A DNA stretch of 64,000 nucleotides from NCBI GenBank assembly GCA_000182565.2, contig KQ257466.1, one strand, 5' to 3'. This document shows, piece after piece, positions 9,360-57,068 of the stretch (within the stretch, counting starts at the first letter, position 1; each line of letters begins with the position of its first letter). Source of the DNA: Spizellomyces punctatus DAOM BR117. Taxonomy: Eukaryota. The notes under the pieces are model-generated. The model was not told the origin of the DNA and searched no databases. It saw only the letters and a list, made by a program, of their open reading frames with translations. A program made the translations under genes and the position numbers.

Positions 9360-11243
9360 GTGCTTATAGGTTTCAACAACCCTACCAGTAACCCATGGCT
9401 GTCGAACCCGGGACAGCTCCCTACTGCCAAAACTTCAAAGTCTAAATACCCAAGCGCGCCGTCATTAGTCTCTGAATTCCCAGAACTTACGCGGCTGCAC
9501 GGAGCGTTGTCGAATGAGTCACTAAAACATGTCCCTAATGTCGACCGGACTCGAAAGGATCATGCAGGCGCCAAGAACCCGTCCTTCCGCTCCACGGGCT
9601 CACTTGGGCTCGGGTTACGGGGACATGATATTCAGCATCCAATCATGGTCGGTAGAGTTCCTGTGGCCCCTCCCAGGCCGTCCGTGTCGTTAGACAAGGC
9701 AAAGCAGACAATAGACTCTCAGGAAATCACGCGACATGCAATACCTATCGCCATACTTTTGTCCCTTTTGCTCGGTCCGTTTGTGCCTCCGCTGTTGCGA
9801 GTAGTTGGTGTGATAGATTTTGTGAACCATCCCCTGGTATTCCGGCTCTTGTTGTGTGGATTCAGTGTGGCCTTGATATGGACTGTGGGAAGGAGTATTC
9901 TTCTGAGACTCGGATTACGAATATCTCTGCATGGCGATGCTGGGAAGCGCTGGTGTAGAGTGTGGATCGGTGTACCGCCGGGTTGTCAGCCGCCATCCAC
10001 GGGTACCAGGTCCAGATCACTTAGTAAAGGAACCAAGGGTGAGGTACCGAAAAAAGTACTACATCAAGTTACTGAGGAGGAGAGGGCACTGAAGGCAGCA
10101 TTGTTGTCTGGTAAGATGGTGATTACCATTGAACGGGTAGAAGCTGCGGTTCATAAGCGGCCCTCGGCCGTGCCTACCCATTGCGGCTTCTGGGCACGAC
10201 TCAGGCAGAAAGTCAGCCCTCCATACCTTAACCTGCGTCTGACAACCATTCGGATCTATCTCCCCGCTGCAAGCTGGTTGGGCTTCCCTATTCCCAGTAT
10301 GCCACCCAGTCCTCTGTCACGAAGCATTCACGCCATTGTCTCGTACATTGCCGTCAACATTATTTTGCCATTGATTCGTCTTTCTATCACTGATCTAAAG
10401 ATACACCTTCCCTCGGCTTCCGACGTCAGTGGCCCATTATCTCCAGGTATCCCTGGTCGCTACGACCGTCCCATACCATCTCCAACCATTCGCGAAACCC
10501 TTGTCAACCTCTTTCGCCAGTCTCCGCGAGATTCTCACCTGCATGGTGGATTTGAATCCGCGCTCGTTGAGTACCATGTCGCGCGCTCAACATTGGAGCA
10601 AGTTACCCGGAAGAGATTCATGTGGTGTGTCACTGTTCAGGAGGCTGTTGTAGGGTCCTACTGGGACATTGTGGAGGATCCGATAGTAGGTGGCGGTATT
10701 CAAGCACAGACAGGCGATTCGGGAAAAGAGAAAGTTGTCATGAAGCGCATGCAGCTATGGCTCTTTGAGAGAGATGACGAAGTGGATAGAGTTCTTGCCG
10801 ATGTAGGCAAAGTTGAGCTTTTGGTTGCGAATACTATAGTGGAAGCGGTGGACACTATTGCGAAAGAATCAGATACTAAGCGTGAACCAATGGATGACTT
10901 GTTTTCCAACGATAGTTCCGAGTTCGATAAGCGCTCCAGTACCTCGTCTGACGAGCTATCGATTGCATCTGTTCAATCATCCCCTCAAATCGAAGAAAAT
11001 GAACCACAGATAATGCCGGGAGCTTCTATCCCTGATCTCACATGTGCATCACCAGATCGATTACACCGTCTTCGCATTACACTTGTCGCCAGCCATCTCT
11101 GTGTCACTGTCGACTCGTCACTCCTCCTTCTTGTTAAGGATCTGTCAAGAGGATCCAAAATAGGGGCACCGGCAGGACCTAAAGACTCGAGGCAAAGGAA
11201 GAATCCGTTACGAATCTGTGGAAGGGTAAGATCGACAAGATGA
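9360..11243 (+). CDS. Hypothetical protein with two hydrophobic segments (first in-frame ATG probably 9645)
   Basis: 627-codon open frame; hydrophobic stretches AIPIAILLSLLLGPFV and LLLCGFSVALIWTV; no family recognised. Confidence 0.55.
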   Translation: MLIGFNNPTSNPWLSNPGQLPTAKTSKSKYPSAPSLVSEFPELTRLHGALSNESLKHVPNVDRTRKDHAGAKNPSFRSTGSLGLGLRGHDIQHPIMVGRVPVAPPRPSVSLDKAKQTIDSQEITRHAIPIAILLSLLLGPFVPPLLRVVGVIDFVNHPLVFRLLLCGFSVALIWTVGRSILLRLGLRISLHGDAGKRWCRVWIGVPPGCQPPSTGTRSRSLSKGTKGEVPKKVLHQVTEEERALKAALLSGKMVITIERVEAAVHKRPSAVPTHCGFWARLRQKVSPPYLNLRLTTIRIYLPAASWLGFPIPSMPPSPLSRSIHAIVSYIAVNIILPLIRLSITDLKIHLPSASDVSGPLSPGIPGRYDRPIPSPTIRETLVNLFRQSPRDSHLHGGFESALVEYHVARSTLEQVTRKRFMWCVTVQEAVVGSYWDIVEDPIVGGGIQAQTGDSGKEKVVMKRMQLWLFERDDEVDRVLADVGKVELLVANTIVEAVDTIAKESDTKREPMDDLFSNDSSEFDKRSSTSSDELSIASVQSSPQIEENEPQIMPGASIPDLTCASPDRLHRLRITLVASHLCVTVDSSLLLLVKDLSRGSKIGAPAGPKDSRQRKNPLRICGRVRSTR

Positions 11244-25650: not shown

Positions 25651-26016
25651 ATGAAATTCAGCCTCATCTCTCTCTTTGCTATTGTCGCCATCGGTGCGAC
25701 CACCATCTCCACAGGCGTGGAAGCGAGCCCAGCTCCTGTTCCCATTCCAGCTGTAAGATTACATTGCTAGATCCAACCTCTGACAATACAAGCTCTTTAC
25801 TGATATATGCTTTGTTGAATCATTAGCGTGAAAACCCATGCCCGCATTGCGCACCTGCCGGACCTGGCGCTGGAGGCTGCAGCAGTAGCTTGCCCTACAA
25901 GGTGAGAATCCAACTGCTAAATATTCATTTTTACCCTGCCGCTGACTCAAATACCCAAATAGGAATGCTGGGTCGATGGCAAGTGCTGGTGCTGCCCTAC
26001 CGTTAACGGTTGTTAA
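25651..26016 (+). CDS. Small secreted cysteine-rich peptide (76 aa; exons 25651-25752, 25827-25901, 25963-26016)
   Basis: Signal peptide MKFSLISLFAIVAIGATTISTGVEA. Phase-0 introns (GTAAGA..TAG, GTGAGA..TAG) join to RENPCPHCAPAGPGAGGCSSSLPYKECWVDGKCWCCPTVNGC* (8 Cys). TATAAAA at 25578. Confidence 0.8.
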
Positions 26017-26317
26017 AATCGCTACATTGCATAATGTCTTTTCCTGTAATCGTTGTCGGTCTGTAATTACTTGGCAATGTGTCCCATCCGAATAGTATAC
26101 CGGATGGGCTCTTGATAGATAGTTTCAAGTTTAATAATAGATTTTCATAGTTTTGCATCGGATTATTGCTGTATGTTTTCGGCTGGTGCGCGCAAGTGGG
26201 CAACATCGCCCTCCTACGTAACTTGCTTTTGCCAATCTCTGATCAATGATACACTGCATTGCAAATCTATGTCTCTCTCTCTCAAAACCTTTAAATACAT
26301 ACACTGATAAATTCATC

Positions 26318-27394
26318 TTATGATTTCAACTGCGCCAACCGCTTCATTAACGCATCCGATTCATCCTCTCTTTGGACAGATTGGGTTGCGTCCAATCGTG
26401 TCCGCGGTACTTGAGCAGCCTAAAAATCCAGGAAAAACCAGGGTTATTACCATTCAATCCTTTTCGTCCCATTTTTTTTTTGAAATATGGGTTATGCGAA
26501 CAAAAAAGAATTTGTTTACCTTTGTTGTTAGATCCAATCCAATTTCATCAAAGACGGCGTTCATGATGTTTTGTGATTCTTCTTGATCACCCTCTTCGTC
26601 CATCATTGAATCTAGGACGTCGTTTACTGGGGATAATGACACCAGTAAGTCACAAAAAAACATTAATGAACATGGATGGGCTTTTTGTAAAAACTCACTC
26701 ATGTCATCCTTCATATCCATCTTTGTATTCTCTTCCCCAAATTGCATCATGGTTTTCTGTAATTGTCCTAAATCGGTAGCCTTGTTTGATGCCGCCATGA
26801 CACGGGTAGCCGAACTCATTGCCTTGGCTGTGGCTGCTTGTGAGGCCATCGTCTACCAAGTAATCTATCAGCATCTATGCAAAAAAGATCGGCACATTTC
26901 TCATCTTGCTTACAGTCGCTTTGACTCGGAGTCCTCCAACCTGGGCATTGACACGGGTGTTTTTTTCAATGTGCTTTCGAAGCTGGAGGAGTTGTTTTGC
27001 TAGGGTTTTTGCTTCGGCTGTTCGCCCTTGTTTTGCAGCCTTTTTGATGTCCGCGATCTGTTATGGTGAATGCAGCGTGAGAAACGTTGCTGGAAAGATA
27101 GTTTCCAACACTCTCTAGCCTCCCATCGATAACCACCGTTTGCAGCAGTTACGGTAATACATCTCCCACCCCTCGTTTTGCTATGTGCCGAAAAATACTC
27201 ACAATCTGCTTCTCTTGGCGCTCCAATCCGCTACGATCTTTCCCCAGCTCTCGCTGAATGGTCCGTACTTCGCGACTGGTTGCCCGTACCTGATCTATTT
27301 CCAGTCAGCATATAAGTATTCCCATTGCAAAAAGACTTGGCAGGAAACACGGCAGCAGACCTTTTACATTCGGCTTTTTTTGTAGCAAATTCAT
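26318..27394 (-). CDS. CHMP2B: ESCRT-III Snf7-family protein, CHMP2B/Vps2-like, multi-exon
   Basis: Exons DQVRATSREVRTIQRELGKDRSGLERQEKQI, IADIKKAAKQG, KTMMQFGEENTKMDMKDDM, QNIMNAVFDEIGLDL; C-terminal MIM-like DALMKRLAQLKS*. Confidence 0.85.
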
Positions 27395-27600
27395 TATGGT
27401 TGTGTTTTGAAGAGTGAGTGAAATAAAGTGCACTCAGTCCATGCAAGCAGGTGGAATGATGTCAAGAAAAGCTTGGCAAGTGGTTCCGAGGTTGACCCTC
27501 AAATATCCCTAGGATCTGTGATGACGATGCTTACATAATGCCCCGTTTTCGCACACATCACACCAGTATTGAGAAAATAAAACGAGTTCAAAGGATAACA

Positions 27601-27630
27601 TAGTGCGGAGCCGATGGGTATTGGCCCTAG
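27601..27630 (+). repeat. Left terminal inverted repeat (including TA)
   Basis: TAGTGCGGAGCCGATGGGTATTGGCCCTAG, preceded by CA, giving CATA at 27599-27602. Confidence 0.93.
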
Positions 27631-27728
27631 TGCAATGATTCCAACCAATTTAATCATAATTTTACTCGATTTAGGCAAATGAACTATGGTGCGATGCATA
27701 AAAGATGCTCCACCATTGAAAAACGGGT

Positions 27729-27773
27729 CCAATATGTGCGGGAATTTTCGCAGTTGCCACATTTCTATATAAA
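27729..27773 (+). promoter_or_regulatory. Putative Pol II promoter of the Fanzor gene
   Basis: CCAAT at 27729-27733 and TATATAAA at 27766-27773, then a pyrimidine-rich leader up to the ATG at 27843. Confidence 0.5.
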
Positions 27774-27842
27774 CCCCTCCACTATCGTCTCTCCCTGCCC
27801 ATTTTCCCAGGCTTTCTTTCATCTTTTTCCACAGATATCATC

Positions 27843-29759
27843 ATGCCGCCAAAGAAGAAGCAAAAGCTTGAAAGGCTCAAAAAACTCGACAAACCCACCT
27901 TACATACCTGCAACAAGACGTCCTTTGCAAAGGCTTTCTTGCCTAATGAGACCTACCGGCAGCGTCTTCTAGATTACATCGCCATCATCCATCAACTCGC
28001 TGACCATGCTTCCCACGCTCTCAAATTCTACATCCTCTCTACATCCACATCGTCTTTCCCGGTTGTTCACGAAGATACAATCGAAGCCATTCTCTATCTT
28101 CTCAACAAGGGGGAGGCTTGGCATCCAAGAAAGGAAGCAAAGAAGGCATGGCGGGATTGTTTGTTGCCATATGTTCAACGGTACTGCCAAATCGTCGGCT
28201 TCATTCATCCAAATCTACGAGGCGAGCAGCAGTCAATTAATTACCTGACAGTGAGTATGATGACGAACCTGAAAGTCAACGTTCAAGAGCATTTCATGCA
28301 GATGCTGCTCCGGTACATTAATCTGCGGTTCGACGTGAAGGGACAGAAGCAGCGACTGCCACCGAAAAGCGATGCGCGAAAGGCTTTCTTTACTCGGCTA
28401 CGCTACTTGAAGTCGGTTTTCCTTTTTGATGTGGTGCCCGAGTTGGAGTTCCTGGATGACTTGACACCATTGGAGAGCGAGGTTCTTGAAGAGATTTGGT
28501 CATTGGATCTCCCATTCCTTCCTAACGATCCCCTTGCCTACGCCATTGTTGCTGATCCGATGTCATTTTTTCCCGCGTACTGCAAACTCTCTGGGCTGTA
28601 TGAACAATATGGCTTCCAACGGTTCAGTGCGATACCTCTGCGCCGCTCGCTCATTCAAAGTCACGTGCGAATCGACACCATCATCCTGTACCAGCATATC
28701 CTTTGCATCACGCGGCGAGACGCAGAAACTGTCGAAAAGGATGATCTGTGGATGCGCGTCTGCAATCTATGTACCAAGGCTTTTCGGTCTCGCTGTGGTA
28801 TGCATTTTGAAGGCTCAATCACCACGGATGGAGCCTCGGTGTCTGTATACCTAAAGCACCCAGAAGCAGACAAGTATGGAAAGCGCGGAGCGAGAAAGTC
28901 AGCAAACACGGTGGCTGCAGAGGTTAAAGCGCTTTATGTGGAGAACAACTTACCTGCTTGTCGAGCAGCAGAGAATGTCGTCGTTATCGACCCAAACAAG
29001 CGCGACATTCTCTACTGCCAAGACAGCAATGGTACGACATTTCGCTACACCGCCAACCAGCGAGCCGTGGAGACTGGAAGCCGGCGGTTTGCAAAGAGAC
29101 GAGAAGCAATGAAGGAAGAAGCTGGAGTTGATCTCATAGAATCACGAATACCATCCCACAAAACAATGAACCTCATGGACTTCACTCGCTACCTTCTCGT
29201 TCGCCGCGCTGATTGGGATCGTCGCAAGGAATTCTATTCGCATCCTGCTCATACTCGATGGAAATGGCACTCCTTCATAAACCGTCAGAAGAGCGAATCA
29301 GACCTCATAAGTAACATGCGCAACAAGTACGGTGAAAACTTTACTGTTGTGATGGGTGATTGGAGCGACGCTGGTCGAACTGCGAGATTTCAGACCTCAT
29401 CAAAGACAAAAGGCTGGCGCACCCTCTTTAAGCGCAACCGCATTGATTGTTTCCTTCTCGACGAGTACAAGACCTCATCTGTTTGCCCTCGCTGTTCCTC
29501 ATCTGAGTTTGTGGAGAAAAAATTCAAAACACGACCTCATTCAAGACCTTGGCGCCGTCGTGAAGGCAAGATTGAAAAAGTCCACGGACTGCTGGGTTGT
29601 ACCAACCCTAACTGTTTGCAGCAAGCCTGGACATCGGGAATGCGCTACTGGAATCGAGATATGCTGTCAACCTGCAACATGCTATTGATTGTGAGATCAA
29701 TGTTGGATGGACACGGTAGACCAGAAGTGTTCAGCAGGAGTGTTCCAGCCGTAGCGTAG
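27843..29759 (+). CDS. Fz1: Fanzor1: eukaryotic TnpB/Cas12-like RNA-guided DNA endonuclease (638 aa; recalled as SpuFz1)
   Basis: RuvC-I VVVIDPN (D383); VVMGDWS; rearranged RuvC-II LLDEYKTSSVC (E541); Zn finger C548-x2-C551...C586-x4-C591; RuvC-III WNRD (D606); WED-type TDGASVSV; N-terminal NLS PPKKKQK; intronless. Confidence 0.96.
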   Translation: MPPKKKQKLERLKKLDKPTLHTCNKTSFAKAFLPNETYRQRLLDYIAIIHQLADHASHALKFYILSTSTSSFPVVHEDTIEAILYLLNKGEAWHPRKEAKKAWRDCLLPYVQRYCQIVGFIHPNLRGEQQSINYLTVSMMTNLKVNVQEHFMQMLLRYINLRFDVKGQKQRLPPKSDARKAFFTRLRYLKSVFLFDVVPELEFLDDLTPLESEVLEEIWSLDLPFLPNDPLAYAIVADPMSFFPAYCKLSGLYEQYGFQRFSAIPLRRSLIQSHVRIDTIILYQHILCITRRDAETVEKDDLWMRVCNLCTKAFRSRCGMHFEGSITTDGASVSVYLKHPEADKYGKRGARKSANTVAAEVKALYVENNLPACRAAENVVVIDPNKRDILYCQDSNGTTFRYTANQRAVETGSRRFAKRREAMKEEAGVDLIESRIPSHKTMNLMDFTRYLLVRRADWDRRKEFYSHPAHTRWKWHSFINRQKSESDLISNMRNKYGENFTVVMGDWSDAGRTARFQTSSKTKGWRTLFKRNRIDCFLLDEYKTSSVCPRCSSSEFVEKKFKTRPHSRPWRRREGKIEKVHGLLGCTNPNCLQQAWTSGMRYWNRDMLSTCNMLLIVRSMLDGHGRPEVFSRSVPAVA

Positions 29760-29780
29760 AACGTAGATTGGTTAGATTAG

Positions 29781-29870
29781 GTTTTCCGAGCCGGTTGTCG
29801 CGCGGTTCAATCCCTGGTGCGGGTGCTAGTGCCAATACCCACCGGCTCCGCACTATCTATAGGTTATGAA
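29781..29870 (+). ncRNA. omegaRNA: ~75-nt scaffold (29781-29855) plus guide read from flanking host DNA (TCTATAGGTTATGAA...)
   Basis: Lies just downstream of the stop codon and overlaps the right TIR. GAGCCGGT (29788-29795) pairs with ACCGGCTC (29841-29848), enclosing hairpins CGCGCGG/CC-TG-GTGCG and GGGT/ACCC. Location matches the TnpB/Fanzor right-end RNA rule. Exact ends are inferred. Confidence 0.88.
29826..29855 (+). repeat. Right terminal inverted repeat (including TA)
   Basis: CTAGTGCCAATACCCACCGGCTCCGCACTA; two mismatches to the reverse complement of the left TIR. Confidence 0.93.
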
Positions 29871-29977
29871 ATCAAATTACAAATAAATACATCAATGAGA
29901 CGAGTGCCCTGGTGCAAGATCTACCATCTGCACTACTCTTCTCAATAATCTTGCCATTAATTATCTTAGCAGACCAA

Positions 29978-30826
29978 CTATTCCGTTTGCCTTCTTTGGG
30001 CCACAACCGCGGTTGCCTGAGGCATCATATCGGGAAACCATTTCGGCCATACATATCCATACATGACAACCCAAAAAGCCAAGCCTGCAATTGTTCCTGC
30101 AATTTTCTCTTGCCACGTGTGGAAATAAACGCTCGTCGCGATGAGCATCGTGTACCAGAGAAGGAGGAGGAAAATGAGAACGCTGGATAGGATTGCGGTT
30201 GCGTTTGCGTATCGTGGACGGACGACTTGAGGTCTGACTAGGAGTTGAAGTTCTTCGTAAATAAAGAGGGACATGTGGATAAGAATGCTGTAAATGGGAA
30301 AAGGTGAGCCGTGACATTCGTATACCATCATCCAAACCCTGTCAAAATACTCACAAACAATGCCCTGACGTATCAAACCCAATCCACTCTCCCCCATTCC
30401 GAACACAAATCCGTGGATGTCCGTGCCCATCAATGCTGCACGTTCCAGACACTAGTAATACGCGGTCAAATAGCGAATGTCCAAACGCCCACTGAGCAAA
30501 CAACACCCAGTAGCTCGTTGCTGCCGTCCAGCGTATGACGGCACGTCGACGGTATCCCGGTGGCGAGGCAAAGAGGGCAAACAAAAGGAGGGTGACGCCT
30601 GTCCAAAACTGTGCGTAAAAAAGGCTATTGGGTTAGGGGTTTGTCACCACAGGCGCAAAACGACGTGTAGCAACTTTACCCATCCACGCTTGGCAAAGTA
30701 TACATTGAGAGGATTTCGTTTATTCGAGAAGACAGATGGTGGTGGTGGGGCAAAAGTGTGAAGAATGGAGCCAACGAGTACAGTCAAAGAATAGAATAAA
30801 AGGAGGTTTCGTTGGTATCTCTTCAT
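29978..30826 (-). CDS. SCS3: FIT-family (Scs3/FITM2) acyl-CoA diphosphatase, ER membrane protein, multi-exon
   Basis: Family motifs NKRNPLNVYFAKRGW, GFDTSGHC, TSVYFHTWQEK. Confidence 0.88.
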
Positions 30827-32052
30827 CTTGACGATCTGCCAAAGATGCGAGAGGGCGACTTTAAGGTTATTCGTGCAAAATGGCAATTAGCCCGGAAAGA
30901 AAGAGATGTAGACCAATTGTAAAATGCAGTTGGTGATCCGTGATGATGGTTGAGTTGACTGAACTCCAACGTCAGACGCTGTCTCCCACTGATGACATTC
31001 GGTGGCATGGCAACAAGGTTGGCACAGCCATATCCAAGAAATCCATTATAAACAAGGCCAATGATCGTATTACGAGATGAAAGTAACATTGCCTGCTGTT
31101 GAATGACCCTGGAAAGGGAAACATTTTACATCATTCGACGGGACTCGAGGAAATGTCGCAGAAACGAGCAGCGCTCATCATCTGCCTAATACACAGCACT
31201 TGTGCGATCGATCAGTGCCTCCGGTAGGTCCAGTGGAATGTCGTCTTTCATGGAGTATCCCGTAAAAAACTATAGAAAAGTGCCTGGATGTTCTATTTCA
31301 GCAAACGAACTTCGGATTCAGCAAACTTTTCAAGATGATGCTGGACCAGGATTGGTATGGACTATGCATTTCGCGTGCACCTCTTTCAAGCACTCGACCA
31401 CTGAGACAGCAGTTCCTACAGGAGGTTATGCGCGATAAGCGATCTTTCATGAAAGCGGTTCTTCCGACAGGTTTCATAGCTTTTCGACTGGTCAAATTGT
31501 CCTTCCCGAGGAAATGATTTCCGGTAAACCTTGCAGGGTACCACCTTTGCTGTAATGTCCTGGATTCCGAGTCGCAAAGTCCCCTCCCGTTGTTCCTAAA
31601 ACACCAGGGAATGGTTCTTTATCGAATCAAAACATTGAACCGCTCTCTTACTGTTTGTCTTGGGAAAGTATGTATATATCTATGTGTTTAGTGATGATTT
31701 ACCTCGGCGCGAGGAAAACATGGCAAGGCAATGACAGTTAGTGGTAGATGACCAGTGAATGGTTTGTCTCGGATCCACCGCGACAGTAATCGGATCTAAC
31801 CCGAATGGAGCCGGAATTTAGCCCAAGAGTGTTCCAAATCCTGCCCAAATATAAAACCTTGCATGGAACGTTCCTGTCCGCGGTCCTTTGCTTTTTGCCA
31901 ATAGGAGCGTTCAACATTTTCCATAACCACTCATGCTATACGCTCAGGTCCATATATGATGTGCAATGAATGTATCCATTATATTACAGATGTTCGGTTC
32001 AATTGGATGTGCTAATCAACTCATGTGGAGAACAATCCAGCACCATTAACGT

Positions 32053-37244: not shown

Positions 37245-40200
37245 TTAAGAAGGTCGTCTTCGTTGATCTTTCTCTGGTGGCGTCGGCAGAGGAGATTCGG
37301 ATTGTGTCGAATCCGTCGTTCCGGCGGTGGTGATCGATCGGGAAGGGCTGGAGTGGCGAACCGTTAGCCGGCCCTGACTGTATGCAGCCAGTCGAGCCAA
37401 CCATTGCAGGAACACGGACGCAGCCGGCGAGGAAGATAAGCGAACTGAAGTGCCTTGCGCGGTCAAAGGGAATGTTGATTGATCGACACTGAACAAGTTA
37501 AGGAGAAGGGTGAGATTGGAAGGAGAGAAAGGTGGAGGATCGAGATCCTGATAACATGAATTGGATTAGTTATATTATTCTTAAACCAGGTAATGGGGAC
37601 AACACAATACCTCATCGATCACACCGAAGCATGTCTTGATATTCCCAAGCAGGCTCTCCCAAATGTCTTGAACTTCATCTCCAAAATCACTGTCGTCTCC
37701 CATCTCGAGTATCATTGTCATCTTCTCCGCGACGTCTCTTACTGCTTGCAGCTTGTTATGGGGTATACGGGCGACATATACCACCAATGGTGGCATTTCA
37801 TAGCTGTTTGCAGACATAGTGGACGAGCCACGAGATGACAAGCTTCCCCTTGACACAGCCGAAGTAGTAGAGCTTCGCGGGGATCCCTTTTTCCCTTTTG
37901 TACTGCGCCGAGGACTTTTGCTCGCATGGACAAGTATTGCAGTTATACTTTCATCACCTGGGGAAGCCCCGTCGTGGTTAAATGTGCTGGGTGGGACGCC
38001 CATCCAAATGAGGGACCCAACGTCGTCAGGAAGACTGGGTGAGCCAATGTTGGGAGAAATTGGAAGCTCCAGTTTTGGTATAACTGACTCCGTCACACAT
38101 CGCTGGAGAGTGTATGGGGGGCCTACCGCGTCAATCAAACAGGAATGTAGTCGTCGGATTCGGGCGACTACCGCTATTTCCCAGGCGTCAGATGGAGGAT
38201 ACTCAACAGCGGAGCGCTCACGAGCAAGCGCGCATAAACAGTCCATGAGTACATCGCTTTTCCATTTTTGAGCCTGCGATATGCTGGTAGCAGAAGTTCC
38301 TATCAGCTGTGCTCCACTTTGCAGCTTTAGCAAATTTTCACTCCCAGTAACATCGTCAGTCGCCATGTTTCCTTCCGTCATGGCTTTCCATTGATCAACT
38401 TCTTTGATTACCAGGGATCCGATCTCTTGTGATTTGAGCTTGGATCTCCCTTCTAACCGAACACTTTCCAACATTTCACCGCGCATATCATACGATTTTG
38501 CCGCTTGATGCGCCAAGGATGCAAAGAACTCCACCGTTCCATCATCTTCATTTTGTATACGCTCAAAGTACAAGCCAGCAAGTCCGCAAAGACCGCGCGT
38601 GATACCCGCTAGATCATATCCATCGGCCACCAAACCGCTTATCACGCTGATAAGTTGCGCACCAGCAGTCGACCATGCCTCTTGATAAGCGGAGCTATCG
38701 CTGCGATAAATGTATCGGTTTGCGGCACACGCAGTTGCTCGAGATAAGGCGAATGGAACAGCAATTTTTGGAGTAAGATGCACTATATGCCGTACTGCTA
38801 ACGCTGTGGTATCCAGAATGGCCAAACTTGCTGACGGATCGCTTTTTTTCATCCTCCACGCCGCGAGTGCTCGTTTTAGATTGATGGAAACCATTGCTGG
38901 AGCTAAAGCATCATACCCTGACAAGCAGCGGGAGGTCGAGATCGAGAATGCTTTATCAACATACCGTCCCGCGAGATCATAGATTTCAAAGATGCGAGTC
39001 TCGTCCGCGGTACCCACACTTCGCATCGTATCTCCAAGAATTTCCCATCCTCTCGCCAAAACTCCTTCATGACACGCACGGTTAGAAGCCTCCTTCAAGA
39101 TGCTTTCAAACTGTTCAATGCGCTGGACCCAAATTTCAGGGTCATGTGGCACTGATTTAGCTATTGGCGATGTGTCGGTATGGCGTTCACATATAATGGC
39201 CAGCCCGTGGAATATCAGTGCAAACCGAGCATAGTGCCGCTTTTTGGCCTCTTCAAGTCCCTTCCGTGCATACTCGGCAGCCATTGCAAACATCCCTTGC
39301 GCTAACAGCGCCTCAGTCAATTGTTGCAGTGCTTGAAAATAGAAGACTACATTTAGGGTGAAACCCATGGATTGAATATTTCGCGATGGGGTTTTCGGGC
39401 GGTGGGGTGGGTGTACCATGTCGGTGGTTCCAGACTGGGCTTGGAGATCCTCGATAGTGGACACGATGGAAGCGAAACTGCATAAAGTGACGAGTAATCA
39501 GATTGATCCCTATCAATACCTTCTAGTTCAAGACTCACCCTTTTGCTGCAATGTCCAAGTTCCACCTCAGCATGTTGGCTTCACCTCCGATTTCGAAACA
39601 TCTCAAAATCATTTCAGCACAGCTTTCAGTTGCCGTCCTCTCATTTGTCGATTGCAGTTCTGCCTGAAGCTCCGAAATCAACTTTCCCATGATATGATCC
39701 ACCCGTTCCAAAATTGATCCAAGTAAGACAGATGGTTCTCTCCGCTGTGTCCGGGAAATCGATGTGGTTGCTGATGAGTGTCGGCCACCCCGACTGGCGA
39801 CACTTATGTTGCTGGAATGGGATGGCATGCGGCTTAGCGTCTCGCCGATGACCGATCCTCTAGTTGCGTCGCTGGTCAACGGTTTTTGCGGTCCCACGCC
39901 AACGGGGTTGGATTGTCCACCTTGTTCGGATTGGGATACTTCCTCTTGGTGCAGCAACATGGCCAACTTCCTGTTCACAACCTCCGGATCCGCCACATCC
40001 GCTATCTGCAAAATCTTGATTAGTAGCCGACATCGACACAACTCATACTCTCTGACGACATCTGTCCCATAAAACCATCCCAATCTCTCTGTTAAGGCGT
40101 GATCTGCCATGTTCCTCAATATTTTGATGTTATTTGGGGAATCCAGCACGTACACCGAATCCTCGAATTGAATATCTGACACGGGTAGCACAATTCCGCC

Positions 40201-43200
40201 TCCAGATGTTGGGGTGTAAATTCTTCGGTCATCTGGTACCAGCGCCCGTCCACATGAGACGGAAAAGAAGCTCTCAATTCCATCGGCAATGCATCCCATC
40301 GAGACTAAGGCTTCAGCTTTCAGGAGTCGCGCAAATGCCAGCAGCGGAGATGATTTGCACTTGTTCACAGCTATGAACTCAATGAACGAGGTCAGTGGTA
40401 CAGCTTCCCCAGGACGATCGGCCGCGGTCAGGTCACCCGCCACGAAGCATAGTGATTCCGCCAATTCCCATGAATCACATCGGTAAAGGTCAGAAAATAG
40501 GTCCAGGCTTGGGTAGACGTAAGGCGGAAGGTAGCTCGCAAACGAGGGCGGTGTACCAGGATGAGGAATCGTTCCTTGAAGTGGTGCGCTAAACAAATGT
40601 GCAGCGAGAAGTACCAAAGACTGTCGTTTATCAAGGTTTGTCGAGATATATGAGCACTGAACCATTTTCGTGACTGCAACGCCTGCTAGGATGGAGTTCT
40701 TTACTCCGCCAACCAGTGACAATATACGTGGTTTACTTGGTGTCCGATTTGTCCACAAGTCGCTTGGGTCCGCCACCAAAGACTTCCAATCCGCAACAAC
40801 CTTTTCCCTTTCAAACACAGCGTCCACGCATTTGGACCAGAATAAACATGCACTTTCACGGTCGCCTTTGGCAAACAGCAGATTTGCATACTCGTTTGCT
40901 GCCATCGCTATAGCATTGCGTGCATCGTGAGACTTTGCCACACGCAATGCTTCCTCGTATCCCTGTACAGCGGCAAGGAACGTACGGGACATAGTTGGAG
41001 ACTGAATGCTCGCTTGTGCGCGGTCAAGTACAAACTCGGCATGAAGCCCGCGTGCATGCAGAAGTAGTTGCAATGGTGTATTTGTAGGCTGACTTGCGCC
41101 TAGCCACCGATCCAGATCATGTGCAGCCCATTTCTTTCCTACGTCTGTTCCACCTTTGAGATTCTCATAAGCTGTAGCAAGCAAAGGCCGTAAAAAACGT
41201 CCGTAAATGCCTTTGAAAATTGTATCAAAGCGCATGCCGAACTCAATCATGCGGTAGTGTTTTTTTGCACTATGCATGGCTTCGATTGTGAAGAGACTGA
41301 ACTGGGCTATGAATGGAATGTCCACCATGTGTACCTGCACTTCCCCGTGTCGATCGATCCACCCGGCAAGATATTGATGTCCATAGAGTTCGGAAAGACT
41401 ACTGAGAGGCAACACACTAGATGACTCTTGTCCACCGCGAAAGGGATCCGAACCTTTGGCTGCAGTAGTTGGTCGGGAGGGATATGTAAATGTTCTGCCT
41501 GTATTGGGTCGCGAACTTAAGCCAACTGGACTTGAGTTTTCATCCTCTTCGTCAGCCTTCCGGATTTTCACACCCTGCAATAGGTCCAGTAGGCATGTCC
41601 CAGCGATCCACCATGCCCTCCACAAAGAATTTCGGTGAAACTCCGTGCCCGTGACAATATTGCGTTGCAACAGGTATCGCTGTACACTCCAAAGGTGACG
41701 ACAGCTTTCGAGGACTTGAAGCCATTGGCCCACGCGGGTGGCTATTACAATTGACTGAACTATCGATTGAAGCGCATCCGTAATCATGCGAGTTAGGTCG
41801 GAGTGAGCAGATTTTGTTGCAATTTCTTCCGTTGCACTGACTCGTGCATTGGTAGATGTCCGTCCTCGGGCTTCGCTAGCATTGCTGGGAACTCGTAGCT
41901 CATTCAGTAGCACTCTTCCACAATTTCGCAGCTCCAACGCCTCCCTCAACGTTACGTCGACTGCACCGCCGAAATCTCTTCCTTGTGCATCTCTCTGAAG
42001 CTGCTCAAACACTGCCAGTCCGTGGACTAGTGCAAGACGAGAGGACCAGGGCGCCTCATACTCGAGGATAATACGCAATCGACGCGCAAATCGCCGGCGA
42101 CGCCATAAGGACGAGAGAACCAAGTCCAAAATTCTGGCTGCACGATCTTTTCGTTCCAGCTCGGCGGGAGGCAGTCCTGCAAAATAGGTCTGTCGTGCCG
42201 CGCCTCGTTTACGACGGAGGGTCGCGTTATCTAAGGTTTCTCCTTCGGCGGCTGTGCGTGTAGACTGAACACTGGGACTTCGAGATCTCGATCGGGGTGA
42301 TTCAGATTTTGGCGGCTTTGCAGTTGCATCGACAGAAGTGTCGCGCGACGTGCCCAGTGTTCTGTCCGTTGCAGGTGCTCCATGGACCATTTCGCTGCGT
42401 GTTCTCCGTGGGTCGTGATGGTCTGTTGACTCTCGCCGGCCACCCTCGCTTTTCGGTCGCACAGCGGGAACCGTGTCAGTAGTTCCATATTCGGCTGGTT
42501 CTTCTTCAAGTTGTTCCGTGTGAGCAGCAGATTTGGGACGTCGAAGAGTGGGCACATTGCTGGAAGTCCGCCCCCTAAAAGTATTGATAAGAGGAGTACG
42601 TGCAAAGCATACGGTCGGTATGTGAACAGGTGTATGTAAATCCAGGACGTGAAACTCACTTCCTTCCTCGTCTCTTATCATCGCTTTTCCCAATACCAAA
42701 ACCAACTCTCTTGTCAGCAAACAGACTCCTCTTTTTACGCTTAGCCAGTGCTGCATCCTTTCCCCTCGTATCGTCCTCCCCGCCATCATCAGAACGCAAA
42801 ATGGATAAATTCCTTCTCTCAGTCCATTCTTCTGCATCAATACACACACGCACAGCTGCATCAATCAGCGTAGATGCGAGACACCATGCTGCAGCAAACC
42901 ATGATAACTCCATATATCGAGGGTTTTTGCGAAAACGGGTCAGATTTTCCATGGCAATGTCCGGTCCAGAATGTACCAGAACAGAGAATAGTTCTTTCAG
43001 GGACGTTGCTGTTGCGTCGAGAGTTTTGCGGTGGATAGAAACAGTGGAAGAAGCCACAGAAGGCGCTATACCCGCTAAGCTGCCTTCCGGTTGCTGTGAT
43101 GGAGAGGCTGGTGCAAATGCATTGCTTGTCGGGAAACTAGCTTTGGTTATCTGCAACTCCAAGTACTCACAGAAGGCGTCTAGTTTTCTTGGAGTTTGTT

Positions 43201-46200
43201 CCCCGTATCCCTTTGCGGGTTCGCTGGAAATCGCGAGTACAGTATGATACGCAAAATCAACTGAAAATCCCCCAGGCCCCTTCCCTTTTCTTTTTCCCAT
43301 GTTCTTCTTTGCTGCCCGTTGACCGATGCCCAACCACTCATGCTCTAGGTACGATGAACTCATGATTCGCGTATCCAAGAGTCCTGGAACAGAGTGAATG
43401 ACTCCCAGCGCCTCTTCGGCGACTTTCACAGCAAGAGCAACATCTCTTGATCGTCTTTTTGACGTCAGTCGTCGCACCAAATGGAAAGATACGTATGCAA
43501 AATGGTCTCGCACACCTTGGGCCCGATCATCGCCTAAGATGGGGGAACACTTCAGGAATATCACATGGCAGGTCAAAAGAATTTTGATGAGGAACGGCAT
43601 GGGGGTTGGCAATGGCGTGTTGAACGAGAGAAAAGTCGGATCTGGTACATCCTCAATTCGCAAAATTGGGATTAAGATTTCGTAGCATTTGAAGGATGAT
43701 AATAGCATCAACCGATCATCCCCAATCCTTTGAGCCAGCTCGACGGCTATTAGCAGCTCTTTGCAAGAGCGTAATCGTAGCATCTGCGCTCCTAATATAT
43801 CTCTTGTACCTTCTGCATCGGAGTAAGGAATCGCATTGGTATCCGCAAACGTCCGGTCTACATGAGCATAGACACTTTCGATAAATGAGCGAATAATCAA
43901 CGGCGAAGTCTCTTCGGCATCCTCATCGTTCAACTTGAACACTTCCTCAGCATACGAGTCTATGCTTTGCGGCGGACACAGTGTCTTATTCCCTTCTGAT
44001 GCTCGTAAACTGGCATCAGGAGCGTCCCAGGCAACAAAATGAGAGCGTAGAATGCTGTAAGCCAACCCGGCAACACGGTCGCATCCCGCTTCATGTGCAA
44101 TTTGAGCAACTTGACCCCAACAAAGAACCAATGGAAGAGGTAAGCATGCAACAATCGGTCGACAGGTTTCACCCATCCCCCCTATCATGCGTCCATTTGT
44201 ATCATATACAGCGCATGCGAAGGCATACGATTGATTCGGCGTGAGTCCAGATATGGTAATGTCAGTTCCAGGACGTGCCGGAGTGGCAGACCCTTGATAG
44301 AAGACGTCACTGACGGTAACCGGTCCTGTGGGGTGGGATGTCGTGTTTCGGCAGAAAACTTGATACGCATGAGGGAAAATCTGGCGTCCTGTTTTATCGC
44401 ACATGGGTTGAGGGCGGATAGTAATAGATGTGGGTGTTCTTCGGATAAAAAGAGGTGCTGGACACCTGTTTTGCGTGGTAGGATGCGAAGTGGTATCAGC
44501 GGAGAATAACTTGTCCAGTAACCTTCTCTCCTCCTTTTGGGCTTTCGTGAGAAGTTGAGCAGACCGATCCAAGAGGACTGCCTTCTGCTCTTTTCCCAAA
44601 TTCGAGCCCTCCGAAGCGTGCACAGCCACCATCAGTGCGGTCAGGACTAGGTTTTCCCCGCAGCATGCTTTTATATCCTCTTCACTGGGCGCTGTCAGAG
44701 GTTCGCTCAAATGCCGGTGCTTGTTTGTTAGCCGAAGTTGCTCTTGTTCCTTTTTGTTTTGGACAACAATATTTTCGTGATGTTTCAACTTCATCCGACA
44801 CCGAAACAGGGAACGTGAAATGTTCACAGCGGCACATGCAAGCTCGCGACAAGTTGAAGTGGGTTTTGCTGAATCTTTCTTACGATTATCCAATTCAGCT
44901 ACTTCCACATCAGATGTTCTATCGTCATGCAGCCCGTTGATGCGTATTCCTTTATGGAATCTCACGTTGCAAGTAATAGAGTCTAACCCATCCAAGCCAT
45001 CGCCCATCCGTACCCTGGCAACGGCTATCCTCCGCTCCACATCGTCCAAAACGTCGACAGCCTCCTTGAACTCTCCTAAGCACTCCAATATTATTGCTAA
45101 CTTTGCACCAACATCCACCGCAAAGATCGCATCATCTATGTCCAACTCCGTGAGCGTTGCGTGGAGAGACCGCAACAAGATAACACTCATGCTATCCATC
45201 GATAATACGTTGCATTTGGGGGCATCGGATATGGACACAAAGTCCTTAAGCAAAGGCTCAAGAAAGTGCCATATAAACTGACAAGCGTCGCCAATCAGAC
45301 GAGGCATCGTCTGTCCTAAATCTGATTTATCCATGCATTCCGCCAGGGCGTCGAGTAAGCCAGCGGCAGCTGTTTGAAGTTGGCTAGAAAACTCTAACCG
45401 CCGGATCCGAAGATCTGTAGTAGTCGCCGTCAACCGCTGAGTATCAAATCCAACTTTGCGCTCCGAGTGCACGACGGTTTGAAAATTGATAGCTGCAAGA
45501 CGTAGAACGAGCTCTTTGGATGCAACATCTTGCTCATCCTTGGTATACTCCCCATTGAATGCGTCGGTGTCCAACAATGCGTCCAAAATTCTCGCGAGAA
45601 TACTGAATCTCTCCCACTGGTGGTACGCAAAGAGGTGTCTCGCATATGCCATCAAGTCGTCCAGATGAAGAAGGCCCAACCGCCGTTGAGACATGATTCG
45701 AGAGACATCTGCCGGGCGCGGAGACCGTCCCAGTCGCAAATCGGTTGTGTATGCAGACACAAGCTTGGAAAGTGACAGAAAGCTCTCGGGCTCGGAAATG
45801 ATGATTTCGAATCCCACATCCAAAAGCTTCATGGCCAGCTGCTCATTTCGGTTAAAGTCTTCAGACAACTTTTCTATGTACGTCATAGTTACATCCGGTG
45901 AGGCGAGAGCATGAAGGCCTTGCACAACCGCGTGGAATCTGTCCCGATCACCACTGAACGAACCAAGCATGTACAAGACGTCAAAAACCATTTGACGTTT
46001 GGCCCGCCCCTCTTCCGTATCATCCGCGCGCTGACCTGTTTTACTTTTTCGACTACGACTTGTTTGCTGTTTGCTGCTGCCTGCCTTGTAATCCTTCCCA
46101 CCCAAGTCTGTAAACATCGTTTCAGAAAACGAGTCACCCTCTTCTCCGCCATCAACCTTGGAGTCATCGCCCAGTCCATATGCCACCAGGCTTTCTGCAT

Positions 46201-47901
46201 CACTCGTAGTCATTGCCGAGCCCTCCCGGTCCATGCGTCGACGCCCTGGGAAACGGTTGACGCGATCCGGCCCGGGTAGCTGACTGATTGCCTTGACGGA
46301 TAGAGTTCGGACCAGAGTTCGACCGCCACCTCTGGGTCGCCATTGTAAGTCGCCTGTTCCATCTGTCGCCTGACTCGCAGATGATGCACGGGGTCCAGCA
46401 GATGACGGCAAACCCGTTATACTTTGCATAGATCCAGCGAGATCGAAGAAAGACGACGTCAATTGCCTTCCCCGACCAGCAAACCCGTTAAAAAGGGGTC
46501 CACCCCGTGCTGGCGAGGCTTTCTCCAAATTACGCAAAGGCGTTTGAGAAACAACGGAGGAACGCAAGTCTTCCTCGGGAATACTACCAAATCCACTGAG
46601 TGACCCACTTGTTTGTTTCAGGGCCCCGGTGACCACATTTCCCGCAGCCATTATCTGGGGAATGGCATCGGCATTTGCAACTTTCTTTCCTTCCACGATA
46701 GCGCGCACTTCACATGCGAAGATCAGCAAGTTTAGTCGATGCGTAGTGGCGTCAATGATGTCTTGCGTCTGCGGTTCGACGTCACCAGCTGTTTCCGCGT
46801 CGGTTGCCGTCTCACCGAGTTTGGCTACTGCCTCTAGGATGGTCTCCTCAGCTTGCGCGTAGGCTTTCTGTCTTATATAGCAGTTATAGACGGAGACATA
46901 ATATTCAATTCGCCATGGCAGGTATTCTGGCTTGAGAAGGGGAGCGCAGCTTTCAACATATGATATCGCTCGAAGGAGAACATCAACGATCTGCACATGT
47001 CCGCAGAATCAGAGGGCTATACAAGCTGCAATTATTGTCATCATGGAGGACTCACCTCATCCGAGTACTGGATACTTGCGACCTCGTCCGCAATTGTTCG
47101 CACTTGCACGCTGCCCGACCACACTAACCAAGCACCTTCACTCTCCTCCATAAACACACTCCCTTTCATCACATCCAACATGCTTGAAAGTACATCAAGA
47201 ATCTTCTCAAAAATACCACAAGATCGGAAAAGTGGATCGACAGAGCGGAGTGTTAAGTAGGTGGCCATCAGGTGTCCGTATTGTGCACGATGACGAAGGG
47301 TTTGAGGTGATGGGTTTGGCTGGGGTGGAGTATGAGGTATAGAGGAGGGTACCGGAGTGGCCAATCGAGAGGTTAGGAACGCTTCAGGTGCTTCTTTCAG
47401 GAATTTTGTGAAGCAAATCTCGTCCGCTGCGTCGTGAAAGCCTGGAATCCCCAACAATTGCTCCCCAGTCGCAACCATTTTGGAATACAAGTCTTCTTCC
47501 GAAAGATGCGGACCAAACATGTCCCAGCACTTGGAGAGCTGTAGACATAGCATCCGTCTTCGTGTATTTAGCGAAGAATGTAATTTTTCTTGATGGTCGC
47601 TATCTTGCACATGGTGCTTGGCGATACGATCCTTTTCTACAGTGGCATGGAAAGCCCTCACCCTTTTAACGCACGTATTTACCTCATGCTCGAATACAGA
47701 GCGGAGAGATGCTGTAGACATGCGCCCGAGCAGTGGATCGAGAAGTTGTATTGGCGGAGCTTTAATTGCCATGAAGGAGCCAGTAAAACCCTTGTTGAGA
47801 GGGAGTAGCACACCCCCGGCGGCAGTGCCTTTTCTTGCAGTATTTGCATGTTTCAGATTGGTGCTCTTCGAGGGCAGGCTTGACGGCGCCGTTGTCGCCA
47901 T
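37245..47901 (-). CDS. CFAP54: Cilia- and flagella-associated protein 54-like giant protein (>3000 aa), multi-exon
   Basis: Consecutive long minus-strand exons. YLPWRIEYYVSVYNCY and GLTPNQSYAFACAVYDTNGRMIGGMGETCRPIVACLPLPL resemble CFAP54 conserved blocks as I recall them. Confidence 0.75.
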
Positions 47902-53169: not shown

Positions 53170-56100
53170 ATGGCGAAGAAGAAGGGCGGAAAGAACAATA
53201 AACAGCCGGTTAAGACGTAGGTAGCCTTCTTGTAACGACTGCCACGATGTACTGTATTGATATTGGGGTCGCAGGGTCACCCCGCAAGATTCTGACTCTG
53301 AAGTTGAAATTGCTTTTGGTGCCGCCGAACCTGAAGCTGTCGCCAGCCCAGAGGAGACGTTCAACGTTGATGAAGAAGGGAACGATCTTGGTGGGCTCAT
53401 GGCCACTTTAATGGCGAATAAAGGAAAAAAGGGGAAGAAAAGCAAGAAGAATCGGTTTGAGGACGAGGAAGACGCCGCTGCCATTCTTGCACAGCTGGAT
53501 CAGGAGGATGCGGCACAACAGGAAGAGCCAGCCAACAGTGTCAGCAAGCCCAATAAGAAAGCTGGAAAGAAGGGAAAGAAAGGGAAGGGCGACGACTTTG
53601 ATGCGGAGATGGCCAAACTCGCAAGCGAGATTGATGGTGGCGGTAGTGTAGATGCGGAAGAAAAACCAGAAGGTCCGGTTGCTCCCGTTAAGGGAAAGAA
53701 GGGTAAATCTGGCAAAGAAGCGGCACGGGATGATTTCGACGCGGAGATGGACCAAATAGCCGCAGAAACGGAGCAGACCGAAACGTCACCTGTAGCCAAA
53801 CCCAAGGGCAAAGCACCCAAAGCTCAAGACGCCGAAGAGGAGGAAACAGGAGAAATTCGGATAAAATCGAAAAAGGAGAAGGAGCGAGAGCGAAAAGAAC
53901 GTCTGAAGTTGGCGAAAAAGCAGCAACAACCGAAGGGAGCTGGCAAGGTGTCACCATCGCCTGTAGCTACACCGGAGCCTGAACCGGAGCCGATTGAAGA
54001 TGAGAAACCCGATAAGAAAAAGAAGGGTGCAGCAAAGAAGAAGGGGCCAAGTGTGCTGGCTGCACTAAGAGAGCAACTTGCTGCACAGAAAGCTGCCGAG
54101 GAAGAGCTAAAACGACAACAGGAGGAGGAGGAGCGAAGATTAGCCGAAGAGCAACAGAGAATAGAGGAAGAGGAGAAACGGAAGGAGGAGGCCAAACAGC
54201 GAAAGAAGGAGAAAGAGAGGGTACGTGTTGAGCACAAATATCAATCAGCCTTGGGCAATTCCGTCTGAGTTACTTGTTTCTGCTTCTTAGTTAAAAAAAG
54301 AAGAACTCAAAAAACAAGGAAAGTATTTGACACCGGCTCAGAAGGCGGCGCAAGCTCAGCAAAAGGCGCGCCTTGAAGCTATGATTGCAGCCGGGATGAA
54401 GGTGGAGGCTTTGGACACGGAAAATGTGGAAGCCGATAAGAAGCCGAAACGCGTTGTATATACAAACCGTAAGAAGAAGCAGCCTACCAAGGCCGAGCAA
54501 CCTGTGAAGGTCGAAGCTCCCAAACCAGAAGAACCAGAAAAGGAAAACAAAAAGGAAGAGGGAAAACGTGAACAGCAGCGTATCGAGAAAAAGGCTGAAG
54601 AGGATGCTGCCGCGGTTGCCGCTGCTGAGGAGGCAGCGCGTGTTCTGGCTGTGATGCAGAGCACAATGAAGGAGGGTATAAAGGAGAGCTGGGACGATGA
54701 GAGCGACGGTGACGTGAAGGATTCCTGGGATCAAAGTTCCGACGAGGAGACTGTAAAAGACAGCTGGGATCAGGAAAGCGATGAGGAAGACAAAAAGGTG
54801 GCGGCCAAACCTGCAAAGGCGCCGGTTACTAAAACTAGTGAAGTGGTCAAGAAAGTGGTTGAGGTGAAGAAACCTGCAAATGGAAAGGCACCTGTCGCCG
54901 CGAAGAATGCAAAGGTTCAAGAGAAGAAGGTAGACGATGACTCAGATGAATCGGAAGAAGAATCAGAAGAGGAATCGTCTGAGGAAGAAAGCAGCGAAGA
55001 CGAATCGTCTGACGAAGATGATTCCGACGAAGAGTTGACCGCAACTCAGAAGCAGGCTTTGAAGAGGAAAGAGGAAGCGGCTGCTCGCCGACAAGCACGA
55101 CACGAGCAGGCATTGGCCGAGCGATCAGCAGAAAATCTTCGATCACCTATTTGTTGTATTTTGGGTCACGTCGACACAGGAAAGACCAAGCTTCTTGACA
55201 AGATCCGACAAACAAATGTGCAAGAGGGAGAAGCAGGTGGTATCACACAACAAATAGGTGCCACATATTTCCCTATGGATGCCATCAAGGAAAAAACCGC
55301 CCTCCTTCACAAAGACCAGCAGCCCGACTACAAACTCCCCGGTCTCCTTATCATTGATACCCCAGGTCACGAATCCTTTACCAACCTCCGATCGCGTGGG
55401 TCTTCCCTCTGTAACATTGCTATCCTCGTCGTTGACATTGTTCACGGTCTGGAACCTCAAACGCTTGAATCCCTTGGTCTTCTTCGGCAACGTAAAACAC
55501 CTTTCATTGTCGCACTTAATAAGATTGATCGTATGTATGATTGGAAGGCGATGCCGAACCATCCTACGCGGGACACACTGGCACAACAGAAGCCACATGT
55601 GCTGAAGGAGTTCCAGGAGCGGGTGAACAAGGTTATTGTTGAGTTTGCCGAGCAGGGACTGAACGCATGCCTATACTGGGAAAACCCAAACTATGCAAAG
55701 AACGTCTCGCTTGTCCCGACATCTGCCATCACAGGCGAAGGTATTCCAGATCTGTTGCATCTACTGGTTGATTTGACACAGACGCGTATGACGGAACGGT
55801 TAATGTACCTGTCCGAGTTGGAATGTACGGTTTTGGAAGTCAAGGTTATTGAAGGACTGGGTACAACAATTGATGTTGTCTTGTCGAATGGTGTCTTGAA
55901 TGAAGGTGATCGGATAGTGGTCTGTGGTCTAAATGGACCCATTGTAACCACTATCAGAGCCCTATTGACACCACAACCGATGAGAGAGCTACGCGTCAAG
56001 TCAGCGTATGTGCACCACAAGAGCGTCAAGGCGTCTCTAGGTATCAAAATTTCAGCTCCGGATTTGGAAAAGGCCATTGCTGGGTCACGACTAATGGTTC

Positions 56101-57068
56101 TTGGACCCGATGATGATGAGGATGACATCAAGGAAGTTGTTATGGAAGACTTGACATCTCTTCTCTCTTCCATCGACAAGTCCGGAAAAGGAGTCTGTGT
56201 TCAAGCATCCACCCTCGGTTCCCTTGAAGCACTTCTCACATTCCTCAAATCCTGCAACATCCCCGTCTCTGGCATCAACATTGGCCCTGTGCATAAAAAA
56301 GACATCATTCGTGCTTCCGTCATGTTGGAGCGGGCCCCCGAATATGCTCAATTGTTGGCATTCGATGTACCCATCGACAAGGACGCTGAGCAAATGGCAG
56401 AAGAAATGGGGGTGAAGATCTTCACTGCCGAGATTATCTACCATCTCTTTGACCAGTTTACAGCCTACATGAAGAATATGGAGGAGAAGAAGCGGGCAGA
56501 TGCGGCTCCCAAGGCTGTGTTCCCTTGCGCGTTGAGAATTGTACCTGGAGCGGTGTTTAACAAGAGAAATCCAATTGTTTTGGGTGTGGATGTGATTGAT
56601 GGCAATCTGAAAATCGGGACTCCATTATGTGTCGTAAATGAAGAGGTAGCGACGCAAGCCATTCAAACAGCATGCTTTAAACGAATGACTCATCATAGTG
56701 CACTTCTTTTTGTAGACAAAGGGCGTAATCAGTCTTGGTCGGGTGACGAGTATTGAGCTCAACCATAAGGTACAGCAGGAGGCCAAGAAAGGTGGCCCCT
56801 CTGTTGCCATAAAGATTGAATCACCAGAATACGAAACACCAAAACTGTTTGGAAGACATTTCACAGAGCGGAATGAAATTTATTCGCATGTATGCATTGT
56901 GGTCGAGATTTTGGATGACAAGGCATAACTGGGTATACTGACTTTATCCATCTCCAATAGATTACACGAGCTTCCATTGATATTCTAAAGACAACATTCC
57001 GGAACGATTTGAGTAAAGATGACTGGCAGTTGGTAATCCGGTTGAAAAAGGCGCTCAAAATTGACTAA
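53170..57068 (+). CDS. FUN12: Eukaryotic translation initiation factor 5B, multi-exon
   Basis: Lys/Glu-rich N-terminus; [48 protein letters not shown]-terminal SREDWQLV-like helix. Confidence 0.97.

Follow-up and report, generated by a model that had tools for sequence, protein, structure and literature searches.

The stretch of DNA analysed here (hereafter the window, 64 kb or 64,000 nucleotides in its full length, from the chytrid fungus Spizellomyces punctatus DAOM BR117) carries a Spu-1 element whose body (27603..29853, + strand) comprises 2251 bp between two TA dinucleotides and holds a single ORF, without a transposase. This ORF is the gene of SpuFz1, a Fanzor1 protein (27843..29759, + strand); it is uninterrupted, encodes 638 amino acids and is the only long ORF in the element. 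Residues 2-638 of its product match residues 396-1032 of PDB 8gkh, the SpuFz1 portion of that entry, with 100% identity, and by this identity the locus is the reference, published SpuFz1 Fanzor1 locus of S. punctatus. The ORF is more distant from the Fanzor1 of Parasitella (E 4.9e-53). The ORF has every residue to which Saito 2023 (PMC10432273) gives a part in catalysis or in contacts with the TAM or the RNA (14/14), and the catalytic residues of the RuvC nuclease, D383, E541 and D606, are found in it together with N385. Since a Pfam search with SpuFz1 gave no family at E 0.01 or better, the Fanzor1 assignment rests on the 8gkh identity and not on a profile. No transposase domain was detected in the 18 ORFs of the window that were scanned, the Fanzor gene being the sole ORF inside the element, and Saito 2023 (PMC10432273) found no transposase within the repeats of the S. 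punctatus genome. When contigs of other origin were scanned with the SpuFz1 protein, 159 pattern matches were obtained in metagenome contigs and 13 in viral contigs, of which none was confirmed in either set, and a scan with the repeat pattern gave 0 matches in the metagenome contigs and 0 in the viral contigs.

The element sits between two genes that are both encoded on the opposite strand. To its left lies a Snf7-family gene with introns (26317..27203, - strand), recognized through Pfam Snf7 matches on two exon ORFs and through the spliced contigs of runs X9 and X11. This gene has at least four introns, as the X9 and X11 contigs skip 26419-26518, 26627-26698, 26853-26913 and 27058-27202, and the joints have CT..AC ends with 0-2 differences; the Spu-1 element is placed upstream of the 5' end of the Snf7-family gene. 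To its right lies the last part of a FIT-family gene (29978..30433, - strand; Pfam FIT, profile positions 192-240 of 240), whose end is about 120 bp from the right junction. Elsewhere in the window an ORF with a CFAP54 N-terminal domain (cilia and flagella; 42656-46996, - strand) and an ORF with IF-2/EF-Tu GTPase domains (54327-56756, + strand) are ordinary genes of a flagellated fungus. Two ORFs of 627 amino acids each, at 9360-11243 (+ strand) and 37581-39464 (- strand), were considered as a repeat or as partners and rejected, as neither is related to the other or to SpuFz1; both are without a Pfam family and their equal length is a coincidence. A scan of the window for bacterial promoters and terminators found 0, the underlying model being bacterial and not meaningful for a fungus.

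Read directly from the sequence, the left junction (27594-27608) is GATAACATA followed by GTGCGG, and the right junction (29850-29863) is GCAC, then TA, then TCTATAGG. A preliminary description of the locus had reported the two junctions in this form and is correct on this point, although the coordinates that it gave for the left junction (27595-27612) are about one base off the string that it quoted. The four bases CATA (27599..27602, + strand), which are composed of CA from the flank and of the 5' TA and which equal the experimentally determined SpuFz1 TAM (Saito 2023, PMC10432273), stand directly 5' of the left inverted repeat. The two copies of TA are found at 27601-27602 and 29854-29855, the terminal CCGCAC of the element ends at 29853, and the right host flank begins at 29856. 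Counted from the TA, the left-end inverted repeat spans 30 nt (27601..27630, + strand) and the right-end inverted repeat spans 29826..29855 (+ strand) with the 3' TA included; in this alignment the two ends are alike at 28/30 positions. As arms they extend over 31 nt (27600-27630 and 29826-29856) with 94% complementarity. A 23-nt pattern made from the repeats matches these two places only in the 64-kb window, with 0 matches expected from 100 shuffles, and neither a second copy nor a ghost element was found in the window, the two ends matching only each other; no tandem repeats were found near the element. The locus is a non-autonomous Spu-1 element of 2.25 kb, whose terminal inverted repeats are 30 nt long and which has TA at either end. 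Saito 2023 (PMC10432273) counts the TA inside the 30-nt repeat, and the portion of Bao and Jurka 2013 (PMC3627910) that was covered calls the TA target-site duplication of SPu-1 'putative'.

The surroundings of the element were compared with sequencing data, for which 4 of the 24 listed runs were aligned to 26000-31500. One of these, X22, consists of raw 38-nt DNA reads under the same species label, and comes from a ChIP library in which depth is a weak measure. Its depth is ~50 over the flanks, ~160 over the 5' part of the ORF, ~1000 at 29312-29495, within the 3' half of the ORF, and ~420 for the bin at the right end, which suggests, with ChIP depth being a weak measure, that there are many partial copies in which nothing but the right end and the 3' part of the gene is kept. 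At window position 27812, 133 of the 147 X22 reads are without four bases, and this copy therefore has four extra bases in its 5' untranslated region as compared with most paralogues. Another run, X13, consists of contigs of a relative that is ~90% alike. In X13 the left flank lies on a 31.8-kb contig and the right flank on a different, 21.2-kb contig; the alignment of the right flank begins at 29858, at most 3 bases from the junction, and that of the left-flank contig ends near 27509, a position estimated from the depth table. Three other X13 contigs lose homology at 29855 and one X11 contig at 29856, that is, right after the element end and its TA, and the letters past the right end in those contigs show a consensus agreement of just 0.56, so that the flanks differ between copies. 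These contig breaks support the right boundary of the element and the assignment of the guide region to host DNA. No joint across 27603-29855, which is what an empty allele would give, is present among the 15 joints, out of 20, that were listed for the four runs, the X22 reads being 38 nt long, and no loose end at the left junction is present among the 24 listed out of 68 in the same four runs.

Several smaller observations concern the repeats and their relatives. The element family is also present in the ~90%-alike relative (X13), in which five contigs match from 29822 on only and have divergent, scaffold-like sequence 5' of it; these could be ghost-type right ends. On each side the complementarity of the repeats reaches one base past the TA, to A at 27600 and to T at 29856, and the inferred unoccupied site would be centred on the palindrome ATAT, which may be due to chance (p ~0.25). 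A T at the position of 29856 is also present in one X11 copy, and is not in the X13 consensus.

Between the stop of the Fanzor gene and the right host flank lies the ωRNA scaffold (29781..29855, + strand; 75 nt), which ends in the 3' TA, and it is followed by the native guide, whose genomic match is the host flank itself (29856..29870, + strand; 15 nt). The structure text of Saito 2023 (PMC10432273) names the ωRNA nucleotides U5, C6, C7, U16, G17, U18, C19, G20 and G22, and further C40, G70, U76, C77, U78, A81, G83 and A86. With nucleotide 1 at 29781 all of the nucleotides named there fit the locus (17/17), whereas the best of the 12 other offsets tried reaches 7/17; since the full fit is obtained only with this register, the scaffold occupies 29781-29855 and the guide starts at 29856. 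Within the guide part it is U76, C77, U78, A81, G83 and A86 of the published structure that fit the flank of the locus. Moreover, 7/8 of the target-strand bases named in that text fit the complement of the flank, the exception being position -10, and the TAM bases that it names fit CATA. Combined, these two matches indicate that the core of the cryo-EM target was CATA followed by the native target of this locus. In the predicted fold of the ωRNA C40 pairs with G70, as the paper implies, and U74 and A75, which are the TA, are at the base of stem 2; the fold energy, with a z-score of -1.30 and with 19/200 shuffles folding equally well, is not significant when taken alone. An Rfam search of the ωRNA returned no family. 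In the window the guide has one exact match, which is its own flank, and one match with 3 mismatches, at 47365, which is at chance level. The element encodes a Fanzor1 nuclease and a 90-nt ωRNA, made up of the 75-nt scaffold and a 15-nt guide from the host flank.

Using an 8N library, Saito 2023 (PMC10432273) obtained 5'-CATA as the TAM of SpuFz1, found that a single-base change anywhere in CATA completely abolishes cleavage, and mapped the cuts, which in the non-target strand follow bases 16/17 and in the target strand bases 20/21, these positions having been measured with another guide than the native one. In the filled allele the four bases 5' of the guide match are ACTA (29852..29855, + strand), which is not a TAM. 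Since one altered TAM base is enough to abolish cleavage and ACTA departs from CATA at two positions, the filled allele should be spared. In turn, an allele with one TA and without the element should be a substrate, as it would have CATA directly 5' of a perfect 15-nt target, and the cut zone in this unoccupied allele (29871..29876, with no strand assigned) is predicted from the cleavage positions of Saito 2023 to be outside the guide match. Both outcomes are predicted for the native alleles from the published TAM data, and in the text of Saito 2023 that was covered we found no cleavage assay on native junction substrates. A 'perfect guide match' is in itself inevitable, the flank being the template from which the guide is transcribed. 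The informative part is that CATA adjoins the guide match only when the element is absent, and it is in the inferred unoccupied allele alone that the two are present side by side.

Taken together, we think it probable that at the reference SpuFz1 locus an allele with one TA is cut, the filled allele is spared and the break is repaired from the occupied copy. The protein would recognize the 5' TA as one half of the TAM, and the 3' TA would be taken up into the ωRNA scaffold, leaving the guide free. Without the element and with just one TA, an allele would present CATA directly before the guide match and would be cut, with the cut falling 16-21 bp into the right flank, whereas the occupied allele would carry the same match behind ACTA and would be spared. 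Repair of the break from the occupied copy would then restore the element, or copy it into a naive allele. The anatomy of the locus, its TAM, the guide register and the stringency of the TAM are established by the sequence here together with published biochemistry and structure. For the steps in the living fungus, we infer that the TA represents a duplication, that alleles with one clean TA would arise and that homing would take place. A general form of the arrangement, in which the TAM takes in the 5' TSD and the scaffold takes in the 3' TSD, is given in a 2026 review (PMC13565253), and the same arrangement is described for an insect-virus Fanzor1 in the covered part of Yoon 2023 (10.1101/2023.08.09.552727). 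Cleavage of the empty site with restoration is listed in the covered part of that review for IS605 and IS607 systems only, and not for Fanzor, and our full-text literature searches found no in vivo homing test of a Fanzor in a eukaryote. As no transposase was found within the repeats by Saito 2023 (PMC10432273), excision may not happen now. The same paper reports that the fungus has been transformed.

The preliminary description had arrived at a similar proposal, namely that the excised allele would be cut and repaired from the filled copy. Its observation is confirmed and its interpretation is partly supported. CATA, which it gave as the SpuFz1 TAM, is right (Saito 2023, PMC10432273); the start of the guide at 29856, just 3' of the TA, agrees with the 17/17 named nucleotides; and the immunity of the filled allele follows from the published stringency of the TAM, given the two differences between ACTA and CATA. 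Its premise that the TAM of TnpB equals the insertion motif is in print, in the covered part of Yoon 2023 (10.1101/2023.08.09.552727). The biochemical part of that interpretation is well founded on published data, and its biological part, the repair step in the fungus, is a hypothesis.

In the window 8% of the TA dinucleotides are preceded by CA (+ strand), and since CA is the sole free information at one locus, the single-locus p is ~0.08, which is not significant. S. punctatus has 42 Fz loci, of which 19 are full-length, and 134 ghost loci, and Saito 2023 (PMC10432273) reports that CA is conserved upstream of the 5' repeat in the Fz loci and the ghost loci and calls the extension downstream variable; according to the legend of Extended Data Fig. 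3a of the same paper, its locus maps show TAM regions. With 27601-27630 spanning 30 nt, the 30-nt repeat of the paper must include the TA, so that CA and TA together give CATA. The reality of the CA motif rests on this report over many loci, beyond the CA seen here. The low single-locus figure of ~0.08 would by itself leave room for CATA being at this locus by pure coincidence, but with conservation reported over Fz and ghost loci (Saito 2023, PMC10432273) we regard a coincidence as highly improbable. The bases after the 3' TA are TC here, T then A in the X11 copy and GA in the consensus of three X13 copies, so that TG after the 3' TA is found in 0/3 flank readings, a very small sample. These readings bear on the idea that CA before the TA merely records a target preference of the transposase, with no link to the nuclease. 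TA-inserting transposases show flanking preferences, and 8% of TA sites have CA before them anyway; but a symmetric enzyme should give the mirror TG after the 3' TA equally often, which makes a left-only CA unexpected, and the 0/3 readings, few as they are, do not have it. The paper in addition reports an upstream CA only, with a variable downstream extension (PMC10432273), and the four bases are the independently measured TAM. We consider a preference of the transposase alone unlikely, and a left-only CA on near-symmetric ends favours a link to the nuclease over such a preference. One might go further and read the flank motif as a record of in vivo nuclease activity, in which copies persist or multiply only behind CA, or else suppose that the movement of Spu-1 is no cut-and-paste but a scarless, oriented exchange at a TA core; we offer this pair of readings tentatively and hold it to be rather doubtful. 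Persistence only behind the motif has been proposed for IS607 in the covered part of Yoon 2023 (10.1101/2023.08.09.552727). If true, on either reading, a logo drawn from the 176 loci would for the first time give evidence in vivo of a Fanzor role.

Other explanations accept the TAM and concern what becomes of the element. The TAM match could be real and the excised allele still not be a substrate, either through a footprint left by a TA-specific cut-and-paste transposase or through the TA belonging to the element, in which case the nuclease would act only on never-occupied alleles, as a drive after mating or fusion; we see this as a tenable possibility, if not a likely one. The perfect-looking 30-nt terminal repeats and the TA flanks point to a DDE-type element, and excision of TA-specific DDE elements, Tc1/mariner among them, is usually followed by a footprint of a few bases, which would separate CATA from the guide match and thereby make the excised allele resistant. 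In the same direction, Saito 2023 (PMC10432273) counts the TA within the repeat, and DDE excision already makes a break that itself invites repair from the sister copy (2026 review, PMC13565253), so that the contribution of the nuclease may be small. Even with footprints as the usual outcome, conversion of never-occupied alleles by the nuclease could still occur, which would be drive and not retention. However, some TIR elements, such as piggyBac, excise precisely, and a 3' TA in the scaffold with a 5' TA in the TAM fits a design for a one-TA site. The junction could also be a fossil: with no partner transposase the elements would be immobile, and SpuFz1 together with its many guides, those of the ghost loci included, would serve another role in trans or none. 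The failure to find a transposase within the repeats, the 134 ghost loci that make guide RNA without protein, and the biological role that the authors call unknown would agree with this (all Saito 2023, PMC10432273). Yet the same study reports 19 full-length genes that are ~82% identical with their catalytic sites kept, ωRNAs that are expressed in the fungus, a SpuFz1 nuclease that is active in vitro and a CA that is kept at Fz and ghost loci alike (PMC10432273), and we find a fossil junction somewhat hard to reconcile with these data and doubt it. Cutting of the one-TA allele, with repair from the occupied copy, is the reading that we prefer.

If so, the locus is a worked example of TnpB-type homing logic fitted to an element that a fixed dinucleotide flanks on both sides. 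The locus and its repeats, the TAM and the conserved CA, the ωRNA and the general homing hypothesis are already in print, as is the native guide, with which the structure was obtained, and the homing idea is the published 'restorative homing' hypothesis applied to a published locus. The explicit reconstruction of the empty site for this locus and the remark on ACTA are small, correct additions, and the main text of Saito 2023 (PMC10432273), in the part covered, is without an explicit reconstructed unoccupied site and without the ACTA of the filled allele.

Compared with known systems, the locus shows no difference from SpuFz1/Spu-1 of S. punctatus DAOM BR117 (PMC10432273; described as SPu-1 in PMC3627910), as it is the same locus, and it shares with it the protein, the ωRNA scaffold and native guide, the 30-nt repeats, the upstream CA, the TA flanks and the TAM CATA. 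Similar to Spu-1, TnpB of IS200/IS605 elements has its TAM at the left flank and takes its guide from the right flank; there the TAM is the target motif of TnpA, and the nuclease can cut the empty site and finds no TAM at the filled one. Restorative homing has been shown in bacteria for IS605 according to the covered parts of the 2026 review and of Yoon 2023 (PMC13565253; 10.1101/2023.08.09.552727). Unlike Spu-1, IS200/IS605 elements are without terminal inverted repeats or a duplication, move as single-stranded DNA via an HUH enzyme and excise without a scar, whereas Spu-1 has terminal repeats, TA on both sides and no known transposase. A further system is TnpB of IS607 elements (ISXfa1), for which the covered part of Yoon 2023 (10.1101/2023.08.09.552727) describes, as in Spu-1, ends that share a fixed dinucleotide, a scaffold that takes up a fixed flank base and thereby keeps the guide free, and a TAM that overlaps the core, with the guide region of the filled copy flanked by a non-TAM. 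According to the same part of that source, IS607 differs from Spu-1 in its serine recombinase and its lack of terminal inverted repeats. The TAM of this system is GGG. Also similar to Spu-1 are the insect-virus Fanzor1 (SfAV, with a TTAN duplication) and the mollusc Fanzor2, which in the covered part of Yoon 2023 are non-autonomous and have terminal repeats and a fixed duplication, with repeat and duplication forming part of the scaffold stem. A reconstruction of the TAM junction at the Spu-1 locus does not accompany them. These insect-virus and mollusc Fanzor elements are in turn unlike Spu-1 in that they insert into TTTAN and encode different proteins.
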